Positions 1,633 to 8,712 of a DNA stretch of 48,192 bases are shown here, in pieces. Position 1 is the stretch's first letter, and each line of letters begins with the position of its first letter. The position numbers and the translations under genes are program-made. The notes beneath the pieces are model-generated. The model was not told the DNA's origin. It made no database searches and saw only the letters and a list, made by a program, of their open reading frames with translations. The DNA is from an uncultured Alphaproteobacteria bacterium (GTDB lineage Bacteria > Pseudomonadota > Alphaproteobacteria > HIMB59 > GCA-002718135), in the NCBI GenBank assembly GCA_902541435.1, contig CACBQR010000001.1, positions 124,240 to 172,431 on the forward strand, given 5' to 3'.

Positions 1633-2025
1633 TTAATTAAAATAAGTTCTTATTTTATTTCTAGATGCAAAATGTAAAATTATTGAAACTATAAAAAAGA
1701 ATAAGACAAAGTAATATTCTCTAATTTCAACTTGACTTGTATAAAAAACAAAAAACCCACAAATAGTTAAAGATTTTATATAAATATCAAGAAATTGGAT
1801 TGGAAATAACTTTTCTGATTGAAAGAATAAATATCTAAAGCCAAAATATGCAAATGTTAGAAATACAGATAATCTTACGGAAGCCACACGATGATATGGT
1901 ATCTCTTGTCTTTCAACGATATTTAATGGAAAAAAGATGGTAACACCTATAATTTCTGCAATTACGAATGCTAATGCCCACAGACTTAGTAAGCCTATTA
2001 TTATTTTAGCTAATGATCTTGCCAT
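1633..2025 (-). CDS. hypothetical 4-TM membrane protein
   Basis: 130-aa ORF with four hydrophobic stretches and no recognisable motif. Confidence 0.7.
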   Translation of the reverse strand: MARSLAKIIIGLLSLWALAFVIAEIIGVTIFFPLNIVERQEIPYHRVASVRLSVFLTFAYFGFRYLFFQSEKLFPIQFLDIYIKSLTICGFFVFYTSQVEIREYYFVLFFFIVSIILHFASRNKIRTYFN

Positions 2026-2137: not shown

Positions 2138-2533
2138 TTATTTAAAATTATTTTTGACTGGTGAAAAATACAAAAGAATTAAAATTGCACCACTAATCAA
2201 ACCACCTATTTGATCAAGCATTCCACTAAAAGCAGTATAGATAACGGAACCACTAAAATAATTTAGAACTATTCCAGCAACTACTAAAAATAAATAGAGT
2301 GGTTTGCCATAAGAAATAAATCTATAAAGTAAATTTAAAGTAAATAGATATAAAAAGAATAAACTAATTGATACAATTCGAGAAAAATTTTCAAAATTAG
2401 ATAGTAATCCATCATTTAAATTTTTATAAAGATTAGAAATTTCTGATGGTTGGTACATAGATGATATAACCATTAAAATTATAACAATAAAGTCTAATAG
2501 AATTAAATTTTTAAAAATTTTTTCAATTTCCAT
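2138..2533 (-). CDS. hypothetical 4-TM membrane protein
   Basis: 131-aa hydrophobic ORF. Confidence 0.7.
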   Translation of the reverse strand: MEIEKIFKNLILLDFIVIILMVISSMYQPSEISNLYKNLNDGLLSNFENFSRIVSISLFFLYLFTLNLLYRFISYGKPLYLFLVVAGIVLNYFSGSVIYTAFSGMLDQIGGLISGAILILLYFSPVKNNFK

Positions 2534-2643: not shown

Positions 2644-3006
2644 TTACCACATTGAATGGATAATATCTGAACTATTAATTTTTATTAAATTTTCACATTT
2701 ACTTTCAAAATCAATGAAATTATCTCTAAAAGTTGCACCATTGTTTTGTGCTTGCTCAAAATGATTATCTATTCCAGATTGGCTTTCATAAACCTCTGTT
2801 AAGATTAGAGACATATTACCTGTTTTATTACCATCTTTGAATTCAGGGCCTATAGACCAATTTAGCATCAGAAGTGCTTTATCACCCTCCTTTGTATGTG
2901 TTTCATTCATCCATTTTGTATGATCTTCTGCAATTCTTTTTGCAATATCATTTAGTTCAGGTTTAAAAATCCATAAATACTGAAGTTGTTTTTTATTTTG
3001 AAACAT
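2644..3006 (-). CDS. hypothetical soluble protein, possibly dimeric alpha/beta-barrel (ABM-like) fold
   Basis: AAGGAG SD upstream. The pattern LTEVYESQSGIDNH resembles the E-x-Y...H motif of ABM-like barrels. Confidence 0.65.
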   Translation of the reverse strand: MFQNKKQLQYLWIFKPELNDIAKRIAEDHTKWMNETHTKEGDKALLMLNWSIGPEFKDGNKTGNMSLILTEVYESQSGIDNHFEQAQNNGATFRDNFIDFESKCENLIKINSSDIIHSMW

Positions 3007-3060
3007 ATTTTCTCCTTTTTTTAAATAATACTAATTAATTAACAAAATCTCTCAAACAAA

Positions 3061-3900
3061 TTATTGTTGAGAATTATTTTCTAATGTTTGAACATGAATA
3101 TCTAAGTTTTCTATGATAGCATCATTATTGATATTTCCATAAAAAACACCTTTAATAGGTGATGCGTAACTAGCATCAAGCCCACATGAAACACGTACGT
3201 ATCTTTCATCAGGACTGCATTTATTTGTTGGATCAAATCCTACCCAACCTAAGTCATTTATATAAAATTCAGCCCAAGCATGAGTAGACTGAAATTCTGA
3301 AGAATGGGAATTATTGTGCATATAACCATTTACATATCTGGCTGGAATTCCTAATGTTTTTGCGGCCGCAATCATAATATGTGCTTGATCCTGACAGACA
3401 CCTTTTTTCTGTTTAAATGCTTCAATTGCTGTTGTTTGATTATTTGTGGTTAAAGGCTTGTATTCAATTTTTTCAGCTACTAAATTCATCAGATTATGAG
3501 ATGTTTCTAAATTTTCATTTTCTTTAAAACCATTTTTAGCTTCAATGGCTAAATTTTTTATATCAGCATTTGCTTTTGTTAAATTTGATTCCCTTAAGTA
3601 AACTAATGGATCTATTTTATCAGAAACACTATGGTAAATTCCTTTTGTATCAAATGTTTCTACTTTTCCAAGAACTGTAAATTGTATTTTTTTTACCTTG
3701 TTTGTATTTGTAAAACTTTGAATATTATTAGCCTCACCATCTTGATAAATTTTTGATTTTTTGGCTGAGTCATTATGGACATTCCACTCTAAAATTTTTA
3801 GACCATTATATTCTGAAGGATACAATTTAGTAGTTTGAATTAATCCTGAAACTGGATTTTTATATTCATATTTAGTTGTGTGTTCAATGATTAGTTCCAT
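3061..3900 (-). CDS. bacterial transglutaminase-like protein (Bact_transglu_N plus core)
   Basis: Starts MELIIEHTTKYEY (ATG at 3900, just after the alpha-E stop). Catalytic triad motifs GVCQD, THAWAE and GFDPTN. Confidence 0.92.
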   Translation of the reverse strand: MELIIEHTTKYEYKNPVSGLIQTTKLYPSEYNGLKILEWNVHNDSAKKSKIYQDGEANNIQSFTNTNKVKKIQFTVLGKVETFDTKGIYHSVSDKIDPLVYLRESNLTKANADIKNLAIEAKNGFKENENLETSHNLMNLVAEKIEYKPLTTNNQTTAIEAFKQKKGVCQDQAHIMIAAAKTLGIPARYVNGYMHNNSHSSEFQSTHAWAEFYINDLGWVGFDPTNKCSPDERYVRVSCGLDASYASPIKGVFYGNINNDAIIENLDIHVQTLENNSQQ

Positions 3901-3901
3901 A

Positions 3902-4837
3902 TTAATTAAAAAACTCCTTATGTATTTCGTTATCAACACTAGATATTTTTCTAATAAATTGTGTTACAAATTGATGAAGACCATATTCAACAATAGTTTC
4001 TATTTTTTCTTCTTGAATTTTAGTATTTAGATCTTTTAAATTATTATAAATTCTTCCAACTTTTTCTGGACTACATGTTAGGTTAGTTAAATGTTTGACA
4101 ATATTTTGAATACAAAAACTTAAAGATCTAGGACAATTACTATTTAAAACTAAAAAATCAGCTATTTTAGTAGCAGTAATATTGCCATCGTATGCCCATC
4201 GAAAAGCTCTAAAAGAAGATAAAGAACGAAGCAATATACTCCATTGCATATTATCGATATTACCACCTACATATTGAGGTTTAGGTAATAAAACAAAATA
4301 CTTTACATCTAATAATCTGGCAGAATTATCTGCCCTTTCAATAAATAAACCTAGAAAAAGAAAATTATAACCATCATTTCTAAGCAGTGAACTTAACGAC
4401 CCTCTAAATAAATTTACTTGCTCTATTGTCCACTCAGTAAGGTCAGGTAAATCAGATTTAGTAAATTTTTTTTCTTTTAAGTTTAATATCTCTTGATAAG
4501 TTTTATTAATTGCTAACCATGACTCAGGGGTAAAGGAAGTTCTAACAACTAATGCATTATTTCGGGCATTAAGAATGCAATTGTAAACAGATGAAGGATT
4601 ACTTTCATCAAAAAATAAATAATCTTCAACATTTCTTTGTTCAATTGTATCATATTTATTTTTATATCCTTCAATTGCTCCAGCGGCAGATAAGACTGAT
4701 TCCCATTCATTATTATAACCACTAGGATTTGGGAAAAGAGACATTCTATAACCAACATCCAAGAGTCTTGCTGTTGTTTCAGCTCGTTCCATATAACGAC
4801 TTATCCAATATAAATATTCTGCAGTTCTACTTAACAT
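3902..4837 (-). CDS. alpha-E domain protein (DUF403)
   Basis: MLSRTAEYLYWISRYMERAETTARLLDV and a second ER motif FIERADNSARLLDVKY, plus PRSL. Confidence 0.93.
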   Translation of the reverse strand: MLSRTAEYLYWISRYMERAETTARLLDVGYRMSLFPNPSGYNNEWESVLSAAGAIEGYKNKYDTIEQRNVEDYLFFDESNPSSVYNCILNARNNALVVRTSFTPESWLAINKTYQEILNLKEKKFTKSDLPDLTEWTIEQVNLFRGSLSSLLRNDGYNFLFLGLFIERADNSARLLDVKYFVLLPKPQYVGGNIDNMQWSILLRSLSSFRAFRWAYDGNITATKIADFLVLNSNCPRSLSFCIQNIVKHLTNLTCSPEKVGRIYNNLKDLNTKIQEEKIETIVEYGLHQFVTQFIRKISSVDNEIHKEFFN

Positions 4838-4846
4838 TTTTATACC

Positions 4847-6256
4847 TCATTCAGCTAAAACCCATGTGTCTTTAACACCACCTCCTTGGCTAGAATTTAC
4901 AACAAACGAACCTTCATTCATTGCAACTCTAGTCAAACCCCCAGAACTTAATTGAGCTTGCTCTCCAATTAAGCAAAATGGTCGTAAATCTACTCTTCTT
5001 CCCTCAACTTGATTTTTAATAAGTGTTGGTGAAAATGACAGATCCAGTAAAGGCTGTGCTATATATCCCTTTGGATTTGTTGAGAGTTTTGTTTTAAATT
5101 CATCTATAGAAGATTTAGAGGATTTTGGACCTATTAACATTCCATAACCTCCAGATCCATCAACTTCTTTTACTACAAGTTCATTTATATTATCTAAAAC
5201 ATATTTTAATTCTTGTTCTTTTTCACAATTCCAAGTTTCAACATTGTCTAGGATTGGTTGTTCACCAAGATAAAATTTGATCATCTCAGGCACATAAATA
5301 TAAATTGCTTTGTCATCAGCAATACCTGCGCCAGGAGCAGAACAGATATTGACACCACCTGTTCTATAAACATCCATAATTCCTGGAATACCAATTACAG
5401 ATTGTGGATTAAAACATAGAGGATCTAAAAAATCATCATCTATTCTTCTGTATACAACATCTACTCTCTTTGGGCCATCAACTGTTTTCATATAAAGATA
5501 TTTTCCTTCAACAAATAAATCTGTTGATTCAACCATTTCAATACCCATTTGATCTGATAAAAAACTATGTTCGTAATAAGCGCTATTTAACGGTCCAGGT
5601 GTAAGTAACACACATACGGGTTCTGAATTTTCACATTTAATAGGAGCTAAACTCATTAAAGTTTGTAAAAGTCTTGTTGGATAATCATCAATTGGTGTGA
5701 CTCTGTTATTATGAAATAAATCAGGAAACATTCGCATCATTATTTCCCTATTTTCTAACATGTAAGAAACACCACTTGGTGTTCGACAATTATCTTCTAA
5801 AACAAAATAATCATTGGGACCTGTTCTAACTAAATCAATACCAATTATAGGACTATAAATATCTCTGGGAGGTGAAAAACCAATCATTGAAGGTTCAAAT
5901 GATTTTTTTTTGTAAATAATTTCTTTAGGAATTATATTTGCTTTTATTATTTCACCTTGATTATAAATATCAGCTAGAAAAGCATTTAGTGCTTTAGCTC
6001 TTTGAATTACCCCTCTTTCTAACTTTAACCATTCAGTATAAGTAAATATCCTTGGAATTAAATCAAACGGAATAATTCTTTCTCTTGCAGTTTCATTATT
6101 TGTAGAAAATGTAATTCCAATATTTCTAAAATGAGTTTCAGCTTCAGCATTCTTTTCAAGAATAACTTTTGAAGTCATTTGATCTAACCAATCATTAATA
6201 TTGTTATAATGTTTCCTTATAACTGACTGAGATTGATACATTTCGTTAAACATCAA
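4847..6256 (-). CDS. circularly permuted type 2 ATP-grasp protein (DUF404/DUF407), predicted peptide/amide ligase
   Basis: ERIIPFDLIPR, VLEDNCRTPSGVSYMLENR, SAYYEHSFL, RRIDDDFLDP, GSGGYG, VVNSSQGGGVKDTWVL. The true start may be the ATG at 6253. Confidence 0.95.
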   Translation of the reverse strand: MMFNEMYQSQSVIRKHYNNINDWLDQMTSKVILEKNAEAETHFRNIGITFSTNNETARERIIPFDLIPRIFTYTEWLKLERGVIQRAKALNAFLADIYNQGEIIKANIIPKEIIYKKKSFEPSMIGFSPPRDIYSPIIGIDLVRTGPNDYFVLEDNCRTPSGVSYMLENREIMMRMFPDLFHNNRVTPIDDYPTRLLQTLMSLAPIKCENSEPVCVLLTPGPLNSAYYEHSFLSDQMGIEMVESTDLFVEGKYLYMKTVDGPKRVDVVYRRIDDDFLDPLCFNPQSVIGIPGIMDVYRTGGVNICSAPGAGIADDKAIYIYVPEMIKFYLGEQPILDNVETWNCEKEQELKYVLDNINELVVKEVDGSGGYGMLIGPKSSKSSIDEFKTKLSTNPKGYIAQPLLDLSFSPTLIKNQVEGRRVDLRPFCLIGEQAQLSSGGLTRVAMNEGSFVVNSSQGGGVKDTWVLAE

Positions 6257-6314
6257 GCATTAAATCTCTTGAGATTTGAAAAGAATAATTTTTATTATCT
6301 AACTTTTTAAACAT
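6246..6314 (-). CDS. candidate 22-aa leader ORF (MFKKLDNKNYSFQISRDLMLDV) overlapping the start of the ATP-grasp gene
   Basis: ATG at 6314 preceded by AGAAAGG. The stop at 6246-6248 lies inside the first codons of the ATP-grasp gene, in a different frame. Confidence 0.35.
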   Translation of the reverse strand: MFKKLDNKNYSFQISRDLMLDV

Positions 6315-6380
6315 AGTTATAACAAACCTTTCTTATCCGTTATAATTCATGCCTAGCTATGGAAATTAATAATAAGATCC

Positions 6381-6433
6381 GCGTTCCTTCAGCTTTAGCT
6401 TACTTCCGATCTGTAAAATACAGATTGAACGAT
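6381..6433 (-). ncRNA. glutamine-I riboswitch (glnA RNA motif), aptamer 2 of tandem pair
   Basis: Minus strand AUCGUUCA-AUCUGUA-uuu-UACAGAU-CGGAAGUA-AGC-uaaa-GCU-GAAGGAACGC. P1 is CGUUC/GAACG, followed by P2 and an E-loop AGUA/GAA in P3, matching the glnA consensus. Confidence 0.88.
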
Positions 6434-6447
6434 TTAATAACTTGCAT

Positions 6448-6500
6448 GCGTTCCTTCAACTTTCGTTTACTTCCGTTTTGAATTATTCAAAATGAACGAT
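6448..6500 (-). ncRNA. glutamine-I riboswitch (glnA RNA motif), aptamer 1 of tandem pair
   Basis: Minus strand AUCGUUCA-UUUUGAA-uaa-UUCAAAA-CGGAAGUA-AAC-gaaa-GUU-GAAGGAACGC. The core is identical to aptamer 2, and the P2 and P3 stems covary. Confidence 0.88.
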
Positions 6501-6555
6501 GAAAAATTAATAATAAAACTTATTGATATTATAAAATGAATAAGATCATAGTCTG

Positions 6556-6574
6556 ATATGCAAAAATTGCATAT
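6556..6574. promoter_or_regulatory. palindrome, possible operator or weak terminator upstream of the riboswitch
   Basis: ATATGCAA-aaa-TTGCATAT. A minus-strand TATAAT lies at 6528-6533. Confidence 0.3.
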
Positions 6575-6615
6575 ATTAAAAAATAGTTTATAGTATGGAA
6601 AATTATTAAAAATTA

Positions 6616-8712
6616 TTAATCAAGACTAATATTTAAAATATCAACTAAACCAATTGGATTAATTGAGTATAAAAGTAAATCGTTATATGAAATAGACTCA
6701 AAAGGATTAACACTCAACTTGAGATTTGAAGGCTTATCAATAAAATTAATAATTTTATTAATATATTCTCTATCTATTGAATTTTGCAAATTGATATCAT
6801 TATTTATTTCTTGCAAAATAAATTCAATAATTTCTTGTTTATTTAAGCCATACATCTCTTCTAAAAAAACAAATATTCTATCTGTTAAACCTTCATCTAT
6901 TAATTCAATATCAAATGAATCAAATTTAAATTCATTGGTAAAATATTCAATAAGCTCATTATCATTATTGAGATTAAGGGAGTTAAGGTCAAGATTTGAA
7001 AATATTAAATTTGAATCTATTTTAAAAGCATCATGAACAAATGTTGTAAAATTAAGATTAAATTTATTTTCTTCATAATCAATTAATGATTTTATATCAA
7101 AATCAAATATTATATTATCATAACCCAATAAATTTAAATACATATCTGTTTCAGAATCAAAGTCTGAAAAATAACTATTTTTGAAACTTAAATCTAAAGA
7201 GATTGGAAATAATAAATCTCCCATTTGAATCGTATTGTAATTAGATATTTCATAAAGTTCAGCATTTAAAGTAATATTTTCAAACTTTTCATTATGCCAA
7301 AAATTTTTAGTTGAAAATTTATCTAAGGATTTAAATATTGACAATGCAAAATCGGGATCATTGATGTCAAATACAGACATATATTGAGGTCTATTAAACT
7401 CTAAGTTTTGTATTGAAACCATCTCACCGGCTTGTTCATAATCAATTTCATTAAAATAGAAATCTGTAACTAGAATTTTATCAAATTTCATATTATCGAA
7501 ACCATTAAATTCTAATTTATTCCATTCGCCATAATAGTCTATATCATCAATTTTAACTCCATTAATTTTGAAGTAATCAAAACTAATTGTATCAAAAACA
7601 TAAAAAATATTTTCTAAACTATCAAAATAGTTAAATTCAATTAAATCTATTGAGTATAAGAAATCATAAATTAAACTTGAATTTTTTATGTTTAAATTTG
7701 AGATTTCAAAATGATCAATAAAATGTTCAATTTCATTTTCTTTTACGGTATAATTTTTAACAATAAATTTATCAAATAAATTTATATCTAATTCATTGTT
7801 TAACTTAATTTTATTAATTGCATAATAATCTAAGTTTAATATTGTGATTTCACCTATTTTAAAGACTGATATACCATCATCATATGAAATATTTTTGATA
7901 GTAAAACTATTATCATCAATAAATTCAAAAACATCATATTCTAATTCAGAATTTTCAAAAAATTCTTTAATTGTATTTTGTGATATCTCTATGTTAAAAA
8001 ATTCTTCTATAAAATTAGTATTATCATTGTTAGAATTTAAATTGTCTGAACCTACAAACTGATTGTTTGCAAATAAACCTTCTGTTACTGTTCCATCAGA
8101 AGATGTAAATTTTCCATAACCACTATATTCACCATTTTTAAATTCTCCTTCATAAAAATCACCATTTACAAAAGTAAAAACTCCGTATCCATTATAGTCA
8201 TCATCTAGAAATTGACCTTCATATATATTTCCACTAGCTAAATAAAGTATTCCAAAACCGTTTCTTTCATTGTTTTTATATTCTCCTTCATAATATTCCC
8301 CATCAGGAAAAGTATATTTTCCAAATCCATGATATTCGCCTTCTTTCCAATCACCTTCATATACACTTCCACTGCTAAATTGATAAATACCAAAACCGTC
8401 TCTTAAATCATCTTTGAAATCACCATTGTAAATATCTCCACCTGCAAAAGTATAGACACCTCTACCATTAAATAGATCATTTTTATAGCTACCAATATGA
8501 GAATCTCCGGCATCAAATATTGTATTTCCTTGGCCACTGAAATAACCATTTTCGAATTGTCCTATGTATTTATAGCCTTCACCATCCCATGTACCAAATC
8601 CATTATCACAATTACCTTTAATACAATTAGCTAATAAGTAATTAAAATTAATAAAAATTAAAATCAAAAAAATAAAAAGAGAAATATATTTTTTAATTAA
8701 GTACATTTGCAT
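6616..8712 (-). CDS. secreted MORN-repeat protein with a large acidic beta-rich C-terminal region
   Basis: Signal peptide, CIKGNCDNGFG cap, and about 7-8 tandem 23-aa Y-x-G-x-F/W-x4-G-x-G repeats. Confidence 0.85.
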   Translation of the reverse strand: MQMYLIKKYISLFIFLILIFINFNYLLANCIKGNCDNGFGTWDGEGYKYIGQFENGYFSGQGNTIFDAGDSHIGSYKNDLFNGRGVYTFAGGDIYNGDFKDDLRDGFGIYQFSSGSVYEGDWKEGEYHGFGKYTFPDGEYYEGEYKNNERNGFGILYLASGNIYEGQFLDDDYNGYGVFTFVNGDFYEGEFKNGEYSGYGKFTSSDGTVTEGLFANNQFVGSDNLNSNNDNTNFIEEFFNIEISQNTIKEFFENSELEYDVFEFIDDNSFTIKNISYDDGISVFKIGEITILNLDYYAINKIKLNNELDINLFDKFIVKNYTVKENEIEHFIDHFEISNLNIKNSSLIYDFLYSIDLIEFNYFDSLENIFYVFDTISFDYFKINGVKIDDIDYYGEWNKLEFNGFDNMKFDKILVTDFYFNEIDYEQAGEMVSIQNLEFNRPQYMSVFDINDPDFALSIFKSLDKFSTKNFWHNEKFENITLNAELYEISNYNTIQMGDLLFPISLDLSFKNSYFSDFDSETDMYLNLLGYDNIIFDFDIKSLIDYEENKFNLNFTTFVHDAFKIDSNLIFSNLDLNSLNLNNDNELIEYFTNEFKFDSFDIELIDEGLTDRIFVFLEEMYGLNKQEIIEFILQEINNDINLQNSIDREYINKIINFIDKPSNLKLSVNPFESISYNDLLLYSINPIGLVDILNISLD

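Follow-up and report, generated by a model that had tools for sequence, protein, structure and literature searches.

A Tandem Glutamine Riboswitch Precedes an ATP-grasp/Alpha-E/Transglutaminase Operon in One Genus of Uncultured Marine Alphaproteobacteria

Introduction

The gene cluster encoding a circularly permuted (CP) ATP-grasp ligase, an Alpha-E protein, and a transglutaminase-like protein is a known orphan system, widespread in bacteria and without a known product; it is reportedly the peptide-ligase system of Iyer et al. from 2009. In a stretch of 48,192 nucleotides (nt) from an uncultured alphaproteobacterium of the lineage HIMB59 (contig CACBQR010000001.1, positions 124,240–172,431), which whole stretch we refer to as the window, that cluster stands on the minus strand behind two tandem copies of the glutamine-sensing glnA RNA motif. 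The question that this locus raises is what a glutamine riboswitch does in front of an orphan ligase and whether glutamine would switch the genes on or off. We consider it likely that the tandem riboswitch is the leader of the operon, and that the operon is repressed by glutamine and made when nitrogen is scarce; more tentatively, we propose that a predicted helix, P0, and a leader open reading frame (ORF) would bring this about.

The main text of Weinberg (2010) gives as targets of the glnA motif the genes for PII, glutamine synthetase (GS), GOGAT, and the ammonium transporter Amt, together with PMT1479, and reports tandem copies, in agreement with what an earlier reading of the window from its letters alone (hereafter, the sequence-only reading) had stated; the ligase operon does not figure in that main text. 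The same reading knew of no description of the present pairing, and in the searchable literature likewise no paper was found in which "glutamine riboswitch" occurs together with "ATP-grasp" or "transglutaminase", which search did not extend to the gene tables in the supplements of Weinberg (2010) and Klahn (2018), where the operon could be listed. What is new here is the pairing of the riboswitch with the ligase operon, along with its regulon context and the anatomy of the leader.

Tandem Aptamers in Front of a Three-Gene Operon

We scanned the whole 48-kb window with Rfam cmscan, the gathering score of RF01739 (Glutamine riboswitch aptamer, glnA leader) being 35 bits. Exactly two Rfam matches in the window reached their gathering score, both of them to RF01739 and both on the minus strand, and these precede the three genes of the cluster:

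6445–6500, minus strand: glutamine riboswitch aptamer 1 (RF01739, 66.0 bits, E = 1.6e-12, model positions 1–53 of 53)
6378–6433, minus strand: glutamine riboswitch aptamer 2 (RF01739, 65.7 bits, E = 2e-12, model positions 1–53 of 53)
4847–6253, minus strand: circularly permuted ATP-grasp ligase, 468 amino acids (aa), ATG at 6253 (PF14403, CP_ATPgrasp_2, E = 5e-153; PF04174, E = 1.8e-138; PDB 3N6X, E = 1.3e-173)
3902–4837, minus strand: Alpha-E protein, 311 aa (PF04168, E = 1.2e-86, full length)
3061–3900, minus strand: protein of the transglutaminase-like cysteine protease/amidase fold, 279 aa from the ATG at 3900 (PF01841, E = 1.4e-24; PF08379, E = 3.6e-12; PDB 3ISR, E = 1.9e-13)

The sequence-only reading had proposed a tandem glutamine-I (glnA motif) riboswitch, to be checked with the Rfam glnA model; that search, run as cmscan on the entire window, returned two full-model matches far above the cut-off. 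The coordinates proposed then, 6448–6500 and 6381–6433 at a distance of 14 nt, were correct and differ from those of Rfam only in the 3' tail that is counted. In the cmscan alignment both copies carry the core CGUUCA, CGGAAGUA, and GAAGGAACGC, and the stems P1, P2, and P3 are all paired in each, the sequences of P2 and P3 differing between the two copies, so that the internal covariation earlier remarked upon is real; P2 and P3 vary once again among the leaders of relatives, with pairing kept. With scores above the gathering threshold, a three-stem fold around the conserved junction, and a co-directional 5' leader position, the aptamers are ordinary members of RF01739, of which tandem copies were already known.

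The end of aptamer 2 (6378) is separated by 124 nt from the ligase ATG (6253) on the same strand, and the genes that follow are separated by only 9 nt (ATP-grasp/Alpha-E) and 1 nt (Alpha-E/transglutaminase), which spacing upholds the description of a tightly packed three-gene operon co-directional with the aptamers. The second gap assumes that the transglutaminase gene starts at the ATG at 3900, which start we adopted—the ORF list gives a GTG at 3939 as an alternative—because the N-terminal domain begins there and because of the starts in relatives. The three families lie side by side in one direction, as in the CP-ATP-grasp/Alpha-E/transglutaminase system, and in a survey of orthologs that took one genome per species and kept 80 loci of 544 confirmed, the same gene order recurred in 78 of the 80, the remaining two ending at contig ends.

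PDB 3N6X, deposited as a "putative glutathionylspermidine synthase", aligns with the ATP-grasp protein from one end to the other. The transglutaminase gene combines the domains Bact_transglu_N and Transglut_core, and the stretches GVCQD, HAW, and FDP of its product align with the same stretches (GVCxD, HAx, FDx) in PDB 3ISR, which stretches would contain the Cys-His-Asp triad. The claim of intact catalytic motifs is accordingly supported in an indirect manner, through the alignments with 3N6X and 3ISR. For the Alpha-E protein a sequence search returned no solved structural relative.

Conservation and Distribution of the Pairing

As a check, the sequence-only reading had proposed to survey the leaders of orthologous operons in marine Alphaproteobacteria, which survey gave a divided answer. 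By motif search, the tandem pair stands directly 5' of the ligase gene in all 26 loci whose ligase is at least 87% identical to that of the window, with locus L027 being cut and showing one aptamer. The pair was found in none of the 17 loci at 73–77% ligase identity, whose titles name Pelagibacteraceae or Pelagibacterales, nor in any of the 37 loci at 61–64% identity, from Rhodobacterales and others; and Rfam, too, gave no RF01739 match in either group, that is, in 0 of 54 orthologous loci outside the genus.

A second survey covered the family, with 105 genomes from the window's genus (the window's own genome included) and 11 from seven other genera, 116 in all. RF01739 is present in 113 of the 116. 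The ligase was found in 58, all within the window's genus (58/105), and in none of the 11 genomes of the seven sister genera. Klahn (2018) describes both the effect of glutamine on the glnA-linked copies in marine metagenomes and the organisms that carry these copies as unknown; the carriers include this uncultured marine alphaproteobacterial family.

To follow the linkage itself, we used as query a 601-nt DNA running from aptamer 1 through the leader to the start of the ligase gene, which query matched as a single contiguous piece in 55 genomes, with both aptamers covered in 53 of these. In the other two, G086 and G089, the match begins at query positions 77 and 56, the latter corresponding to base 1 of the contig. 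In the three further genomes with a ligase (G028, G029, and G030) the 5' part of the gene is missing from the match, those of G028 and G030 starting at contig base 2. In every one of the 55 genomes that can be assessed the riboswitch is thus contiguous with the operon, and these genomes span ligase identities of 87–99% and leader DNA identities down to 79%. The upstream neighbor, a gene with MORN repeats, was matched in only one of the 26 related loci (L020, at 50% identity), not all of which reach that far; because this neighbor is so rarely conserved, the riboswitch appears to stay with the operon rather than with the gene beside it. Marine Alphaproteobacteria as a whole do not have the pairing, which is real but rare and confined to one genus.

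The riboswitch-free operons with Pelagibacteraceae labels (L032–L048) have a feature of their own: in most of 12 upstream regions compared, a conserved stretch with TGTCAATTTGGCAA.. and GCATAAAATTAA occurs at some 45–75 nt 5' of the ATP-grasp start, and this stretch could control the operon there in another way.

The Glutamine Regulon of the Lineage

The window's own assembly, 75% complete, contains four RF01739 matches that form two tandem pairs, the second of these lying between the P-II gene and the GS gene glnA. In the most complete relative (G079, 96%), eight matches form exactly four tandem pairs, which precede the ATP-grasp operon, glnA, and two amt genes; in the sister genera, pairs occur at glnA and amt only. 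This lineage thus has only four glutamine-controlled units, namely glnA, the two amt genes, and the ligase operon. A metabolite-sensing RNA thus ties a ligase cluster with no known product to glutamine, in the company of core ammonium-assimilation genes only.

The amt leaders match the ATP-grasp leader (query positions 25–182) at 83–86% identity, over a stretch that starts midway through aptamer 1 and ends some 60 nt past aptamer 2. By this alignment the ATP-grasp and amt leaders are paralogous, and the former most likely arose by the copying of an amt leader in front of the operon. The simplest history would have the operon acquired, or kept, and then brought under the glutamine regulon through leader duplication, because within the family the operon is found in one genus only, its nearest relatives outside are Pelagibacteraceae-labelled (73–77%), and the leader copies a resident amt leader.

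Nitrogen Control of the Operon in Other Bacteria

In other Proteobacteria, published work connects the operon with nitrogen through protein regulators. The operon of Burkholderia cenocepacia is NtrC-dependent, the table for the mutant giving fold changes of -8.2 to -9.4; in P. putida, growth on nitrate versus ammonium raises the genes for the ligase and Anbu by log2 4.0 and 4.4, and Anbu is up under nitrogen limitation; and a sigma-54 site is listed 5' of a CP_ATPgrasp_1 gene in Bradyrhizobium. The earlier statement that the module responds to nitrogen starvation or Ntr control in Pseudomonas is in line with the P. putida induction, to which the Burkholderia data add the dependence on NtrC. 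The operon of the window is like these NtrC/sigma-54 operons of Pseudomonas, Burkholderia, and Bradyrhizobium in having the same three families in the same order and, according to those sources, a link to nitrogen; it is unlike them in that the regulator is a glutamine-sensing RNA and in that Anbu, often present in those operons, is not next to the genes here. No Anbu gene was found adjoining the operon, the three ORFs that follow the transglutaminase gene having no Pfam match, which search did not extend to the rest of the genome.

In four genomes (G000, G079, G038, and G090; 75, 96, 92, and 90% complete), neither a Sigma54_DBD nor a GlnD_UR_UTase domain was found (0/4 each), and a single 448-aa protein was the only one with an AAA domain of the sigma-54-activator type. 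Because sigma-54 and GlnD domains were not found in these genomes, the riboswitch appears to fill the role that the NtrC/sigma-54 protein regulators have elsewhere. P-II is encoded beside glnA, yet no GlnD domain was found in the four.

By analogy, we infer that the operon would belong to a nitrogen-limitation (Ntr-type) regulon, because the riboswitch type and the leader are common to glnA and amt and because of the data from other species. The link made by the riboswitch is independent of the NtrC/sigma-54 evidence and points in the same direction, toward the physiology of nitrogen limitation, which coincidence narrows the search for the substrate.

Anatomy of the Leader

The leader comprises, in addition to the aptamers, the following elements:

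6556–6574, no strand assigned: palindrome, candidate operator or promoter element; perfect, 19 nt, with 8-nt arms ATATGCAA and TTGCATAT about a TTT center
6437–6448, minus strand: linker, predicted 5' strand of the helix P0; CAUGC, A, AGUUAU, starting at the C directly after P1 of aptamer 1
6348–6362, minus strand: 3' element, predicted 3' strand of P0; CCAUAGCUA, R, GCAUG; possible alternative partner of the translation start region
6317–6345, minus strand: hairpin with a purine-rich (GAAAGG) loop, minimum free energy (MFE) -7.0 kcal/mol
6246–6314, minus strand: leader ORF of 22 codons, whose stop (6246–6248) overlaps the start of the ATP-grasp gene

The linker—CAUGC, one to three A, and AGUUAU—the 3' element, and the purine-loop hairpin are common to the amt, glnA, and ATP-grasp leaders of this class, in which leaders the 3' element is near-invariant (AUAGCU or AUAACU, two or three bases, GCAUG). 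Upon folding 13 leaders with RNAalifold, the linker and the 3' element paired in an interrupted 11-bp helix, P0, that encloses aptamer 2; and the same helix appeared in the single-sequence MFE structures of three of the four leaders tried. The stem of the hairpin is kept in 16 of 16 distinct ATP-grasp leader variants, with pairs changed between groups (G.U, A-U, G-C).

Directly after the hairpin, a conserved AUG opens a leader ORF of 16–22 codons in 27 of 27 leaders, whose stop falls, in all 27, within a span that reaches from 9 nt ahead of the ligase AUG to 5 nt past it, often overlapping it as UGAUG or UAAUG. Over these leaders we counted 1 early stop in the frame of the leader ORF versus 55 and 63 in the other two frames, and shuffled sequences retained such an ORF in 4.5–15% of the trials per sequence. 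The leader peptide differs between groups, and that of the window is frame-shifted by an indel, still ending on the ligase start; that the stop/start overlap is kept in all 27 leaders despite such frame-shifting indels is the pattern that translational coupling predicts.

The palindrome lies some 55 nt 5' of aptamer 1 and is the sole match to its pattern in the window versus 0.13 expected. The same motif is found about 57 nt 5' of the tandem riboswitch of amt1 in G079 (L088, 863–881), and not at amt2. Of 27 related leaders aligned, the 26 long enough to include the half-palindrome TGCATAT retain it (L027 being cut). The palindrome could be the operator of a protein regulator acting on top of the riboswitch.

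A sample of marine metagenome contigs yielded at least 80 loci with at least 82 tandem instances and at least 77 adjacent pairs. Among the matches listed, the 82 tandem instances were followed by amt in 20 instances, by GS or a GS-like gene in 12, by ATP-grasp in one, and by other ORFs in 18, with no ORF or a contig end in the other 31; the sole ATP-grasp protein was 98.9% identical to that of the window. The 77 adjacent pairs listed fall into 36 with the linker and 3' element of the window, 34 of a second class, and seven of a third. The window's leader is therefore like the marine-metagenome tandem glnA motifs given in the main text of Weinberg (2010) with respect to the aptamer family and the tandem layout, with a linker and 3' element as in those 36 pairs; and unlike them with respect to the downstream gene, which is here the ligase operon. 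The tandem glycine riboswitch, as presented in PMC5066625, likewise has two similar aptamers for one amino acid and a single expression platform; the fold and ligand are other ones, and in the present leader, unlike in that riboswitch, aptamer 2 appears from the folding model to be nested within the linker/3'-element helix.

Probable Direction and Proposed Mechanism of Control

Repression of the operon by glutamine seems to us rather probable, mainly because the same leader design drives amt and glnA and because the operon is induced by nitrogen limitation in other species. As to how repression could come about, Klahn (2018), citing Ren (2015), relates that glutamine binding creates a long-range G-C pair through the C that follows P1, whereupon a short helix attached to P1 melts. 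The P1-attached helix of the present leader is the predicted linker/3'-element helix, and if glutamine melts it, the 3' element is released. In the scheme that we tentatively put forward on the basis of the folding models, the linker of aptamer 1 would, in the absence of glutamine, pair with the 3' element beyond aptamer 2, so that P0 encloses that aptamer; bound glutamine would draw the P1-adjacent C into the long-range pair of the aptamer and so melt P0; the 3' element thus set free would occlude the start region of the leader ORF; and, since that ORF ends on the start codon of the ligase, translation of the ligase would fall as well through translational coupling. With the linker barred from pairing, MFE folding directed the 3' element to the start region, in the sequence that flanks the hairpin. 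In the glnA leaders a median of 1.4% of control windows paired with the 3' element as well as did the start region, which was the best of 330 nt in six of 14 leaders; in the ATP-grasp leaders the preference was modest, with a median of 5.3%. A global best-duplex test of the 3' element was rejected, its minima lying mostly inside coding regions, and the weaker rank test was kept.

The linker, the 3' element, the hairpin, and the leader ORF together make a concrete model of a glutamine-OFF switch that can be tested by mutation. The leader has features in common with the riboswitch of Synechocystis gifB as Klahn (2018) portrays it, namely the aptamer class and a control thought to run via the C after P1 and a P1-attached helix; but in gifB a single aptamer is present, the helix is thought to occlude the ribosome-binding site directly, so that the switch is ON, and the target is the glutamine synthetase inactivating factor, whereas the model of the window's leader has two aptamers, an attached helix that reaches a distant 3' element, and a likely OFF outcome.

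In favor of P0, its pairs—which we counted with a script of our own, since MAFFT alignments put the hairpin and the linker one column out between leader types—were standard in 603 of 616 cells over 56 distinct leaders versus 11–31% with the partner slid by 1–3 nt. A number of observations weigh against the reading as a whole. The slid controls flatter the helix because it was derived from the same sequences; moreover, the changes within P0 are one-sided and pair-preserving only (A-U to G.U, U.G to U-A), with no double-sided covariation, and the MFE structure of the window's own leader is without P0. We regard P0 as a well-founded prediction. The 3' element of the window pairs weakly with the start of the leader ORF (-5.9 kcal/mol, with 31% of controls as good), and for most of the amt and ATP-grasp leaders the best duplex of this element within 330 nt lies in the coding region. 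On the results of the terminator scans and the duplex tests, termination and translational control are both candidate routes, and both the binding of glutamine by the window's leader and the response of expression to it are predictions from sequence. The glutamine riboswitches tested in vivo are, according to Klahn (2018), ON switches only. The operon is also accessory: of the six genomes in the genus with a completeness of 90% or more, three (G002, G032, and G050) lack it. Finally, the sigma-54 -24/-12 pattern was found 5' of none of the 37 Rhodobacterales-type orthologous loci (0/37, versus a background of three matches in 158,104 nt of downstream sequence), on account of which result we do not claim a general nitrogen control of the operon.

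Whether the aptamers are on the operon transcript at all can be asked of RNA libraries. Marine metatranscriptome contigs from two studies join the aptamers to the ligase ORF (X2, record 5, 6069–6541; X7, record 25, 5859–6431), weakly supporting a common transcript, since such contigs give neither strand, nor ends, nor proof of a single molecule, and may include DNA; the X2 contig, moreover, extends 137 nt further upstream, in a relative's sequence, past the presumed promoter. The bins at 6544–6700 had no contig depth in four RNA runs, which absence has no bearing on the transcript start. That the aptamers are uncoupled from the genes—a stand-alone element or a decaying duplicate of an amt leader, with the operon promoter downstream of 6378—is very improbable in our judgment. 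The leader is clearly paralogous to the amt leaders, and the AT-rich 124-nt spacer has promoter-like hexamers, albeit at chance frequency (26 versus 24.6 expected in 2900–6800); but both aptamers keep full-model scores of about 66 bits, they are joined to the gene in every assessable genome, their stems change while remaining paired, the 3' element, the hairpin, and the leader ORF are conserved, and contigs from the RNA libraries of both studies run from the aptamers into the ORF. In one X7 bin inside aptamer 2 (6368–6411), contig depth rose to 1296 versus about 24 in the neighboring bins, contig depth being a poor measure; that peak likely comes from highly expressed amt or glnA leaders sharing the aptamer sequence.

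The opposite direction of control, in which glutamine as a sign of nitrogen sufficiency turns the operon on, for example for a Glu/Gln peptide store or a protein modification as the sequence-only reading had suggested, we hold to be unlikely. The ATP-grasp enzymes include ligases that form polymers. According to Klahn (2018), gifB of Synechocystis and a Downstream-peptide leader of Prochlorococcus rise with glutamine or ammonium, and Weinberg (2010) interprets earlier data as showing down-regulation upon nitrogen depletion. The linker, 3' element, and hairpin are nevertheless common to the amt and glnA leaders of the same genomes, where the switching on of ammonium uptake and glutamine synthetase at high glutamine would make little physiological sense; Klahn (2018) calls negative regulation "reasonable" for the glnA-linked copies; the pairing of P1-adjacent bases with the Shine–Dalgarno site belongs to another class of tandem leaders (31/33, among the matches listed) and not to this one; and nitrogen limitation induces the operon in other Proteobacteria. 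Repression could otherwise be exerted on transcription, through premature termination (intrinsic or Rho-dependent) or decay of the mRNA in a leader that translation of its ORF would shield, which route we find possible and rather doubtful. By eye, the hairpin of the homologous amt2 leader is followed by a U-rich run and the glnA leader of G112 has a long perfect hairpin before a U run, and an untranslated leader ORF is a classic entry point for Rho. The hairpin of the ATP-grasp leader, in contrast, has no U-tract after it, and a simple scan called no terminator there; in the ATP-grasp and glnA leaders to which it was applied, it gave no terminator-like site from the aptamers to the start codon on the strand of the genes. 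At the amt locus none of the terminator-like sites listed by that scan was matched to a leader hairpin, and the single L090 hairpin that it called is on the opposite strand, in a palindrome. The overlap of stop and start in all 27 leaders, furthermore, fits coupled translation.

Repression by glutamine therefore continues to be the reading that we prefer, with consequences for the function of the ligase. A leader almost identical in design to those of amt, and built like that of glnA, argues for expression when glutamine is low, which timing is a poor fit for a nitrogen store and a better fit for a function in nitrogen limitation. The Glu/Gln storage peptide of the earlier proposal thus finds little favor here and, like the reversible tagging of nitrogen-assimilation proteins proposed along with it, would be a conjecture. 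Speculatively, nitrogen recycling or scavenging through protein or peptide turnover, or an ATP-dependent capture of amines, would fit better; a role in protein or peptide turnover has been proposed for Anbu operons in the literature at hand. The pairing does not reveal the product of the ligase; it offers a regulatory argument that this product serves nitrogen-limited cells. A bolder scheme, about which we are more doubtful than confident, would make of the leader an "inverter", in which the melting of P0 frees an anti-start element that shuts off a leader ORF and, by coupling, the downstream gene. A single RNA design of the OFF type would then control the entire glutamine regulon (glnA, both amt genes, and the ligase operon), with no part played by sigma-54, NtrC-type activation, or GlnD, and the ligase genes would have been recruited by the copying of an amt leader; if that scheme were true, the ligase product would serve nitrogen scavenging or reallocation under starvation.

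Neighboring Genes and Other Tandem Leader Classes

Upstream of the riboswitch, the MORN gene (6616–8712, minus strand) encodes 698 aa, with six MORN repeats near the N-terminus and a long remainder rich in Asn and Ile. Three ORFs follow the operon on the minus strand:

2644–3006, minus strand: 120 aa, soluble
2138–2533, minus strand: 131 aa, predicted membrane protein
1633–2025, minus strand: 130 aa, predicted membrane protein

The gene for the 120-aa protein follows that of the transglutaminase in 22 of the 26 loci of the genus, and neither in the most divergent group (L026, L028–L030) nor beyond.

The second class of tandem leaders in the metagenomic sample (34/77 among the matches listed; e.g., L095, L098, L116, L128, and L152) has a linker of 9–11 nt that starts with CATTA or CATTG. 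In 31 of the 33 leaders with enough flank, among the matches listed, the Shine–Dalgarno site is paired with the bases that immediately follow P1 of aptamer 2, in two covarying subtypes; a short ORF follows at once, and genes for an amidase, an epimerase, and a peptide deformylase are among those located 200–330 nt further on. From its sequences, this class looks like the cyanobacterial ON design in tandem. The third linker class (7/77 among the matches listed) comprises the triple-aptamer arrays of L158 and L161, in addition to L099, L134, and L169, and includes leaders that precede genes for short proteins (233 and 336 aa) that resemble glutamine synthetase and have partial GS domains.

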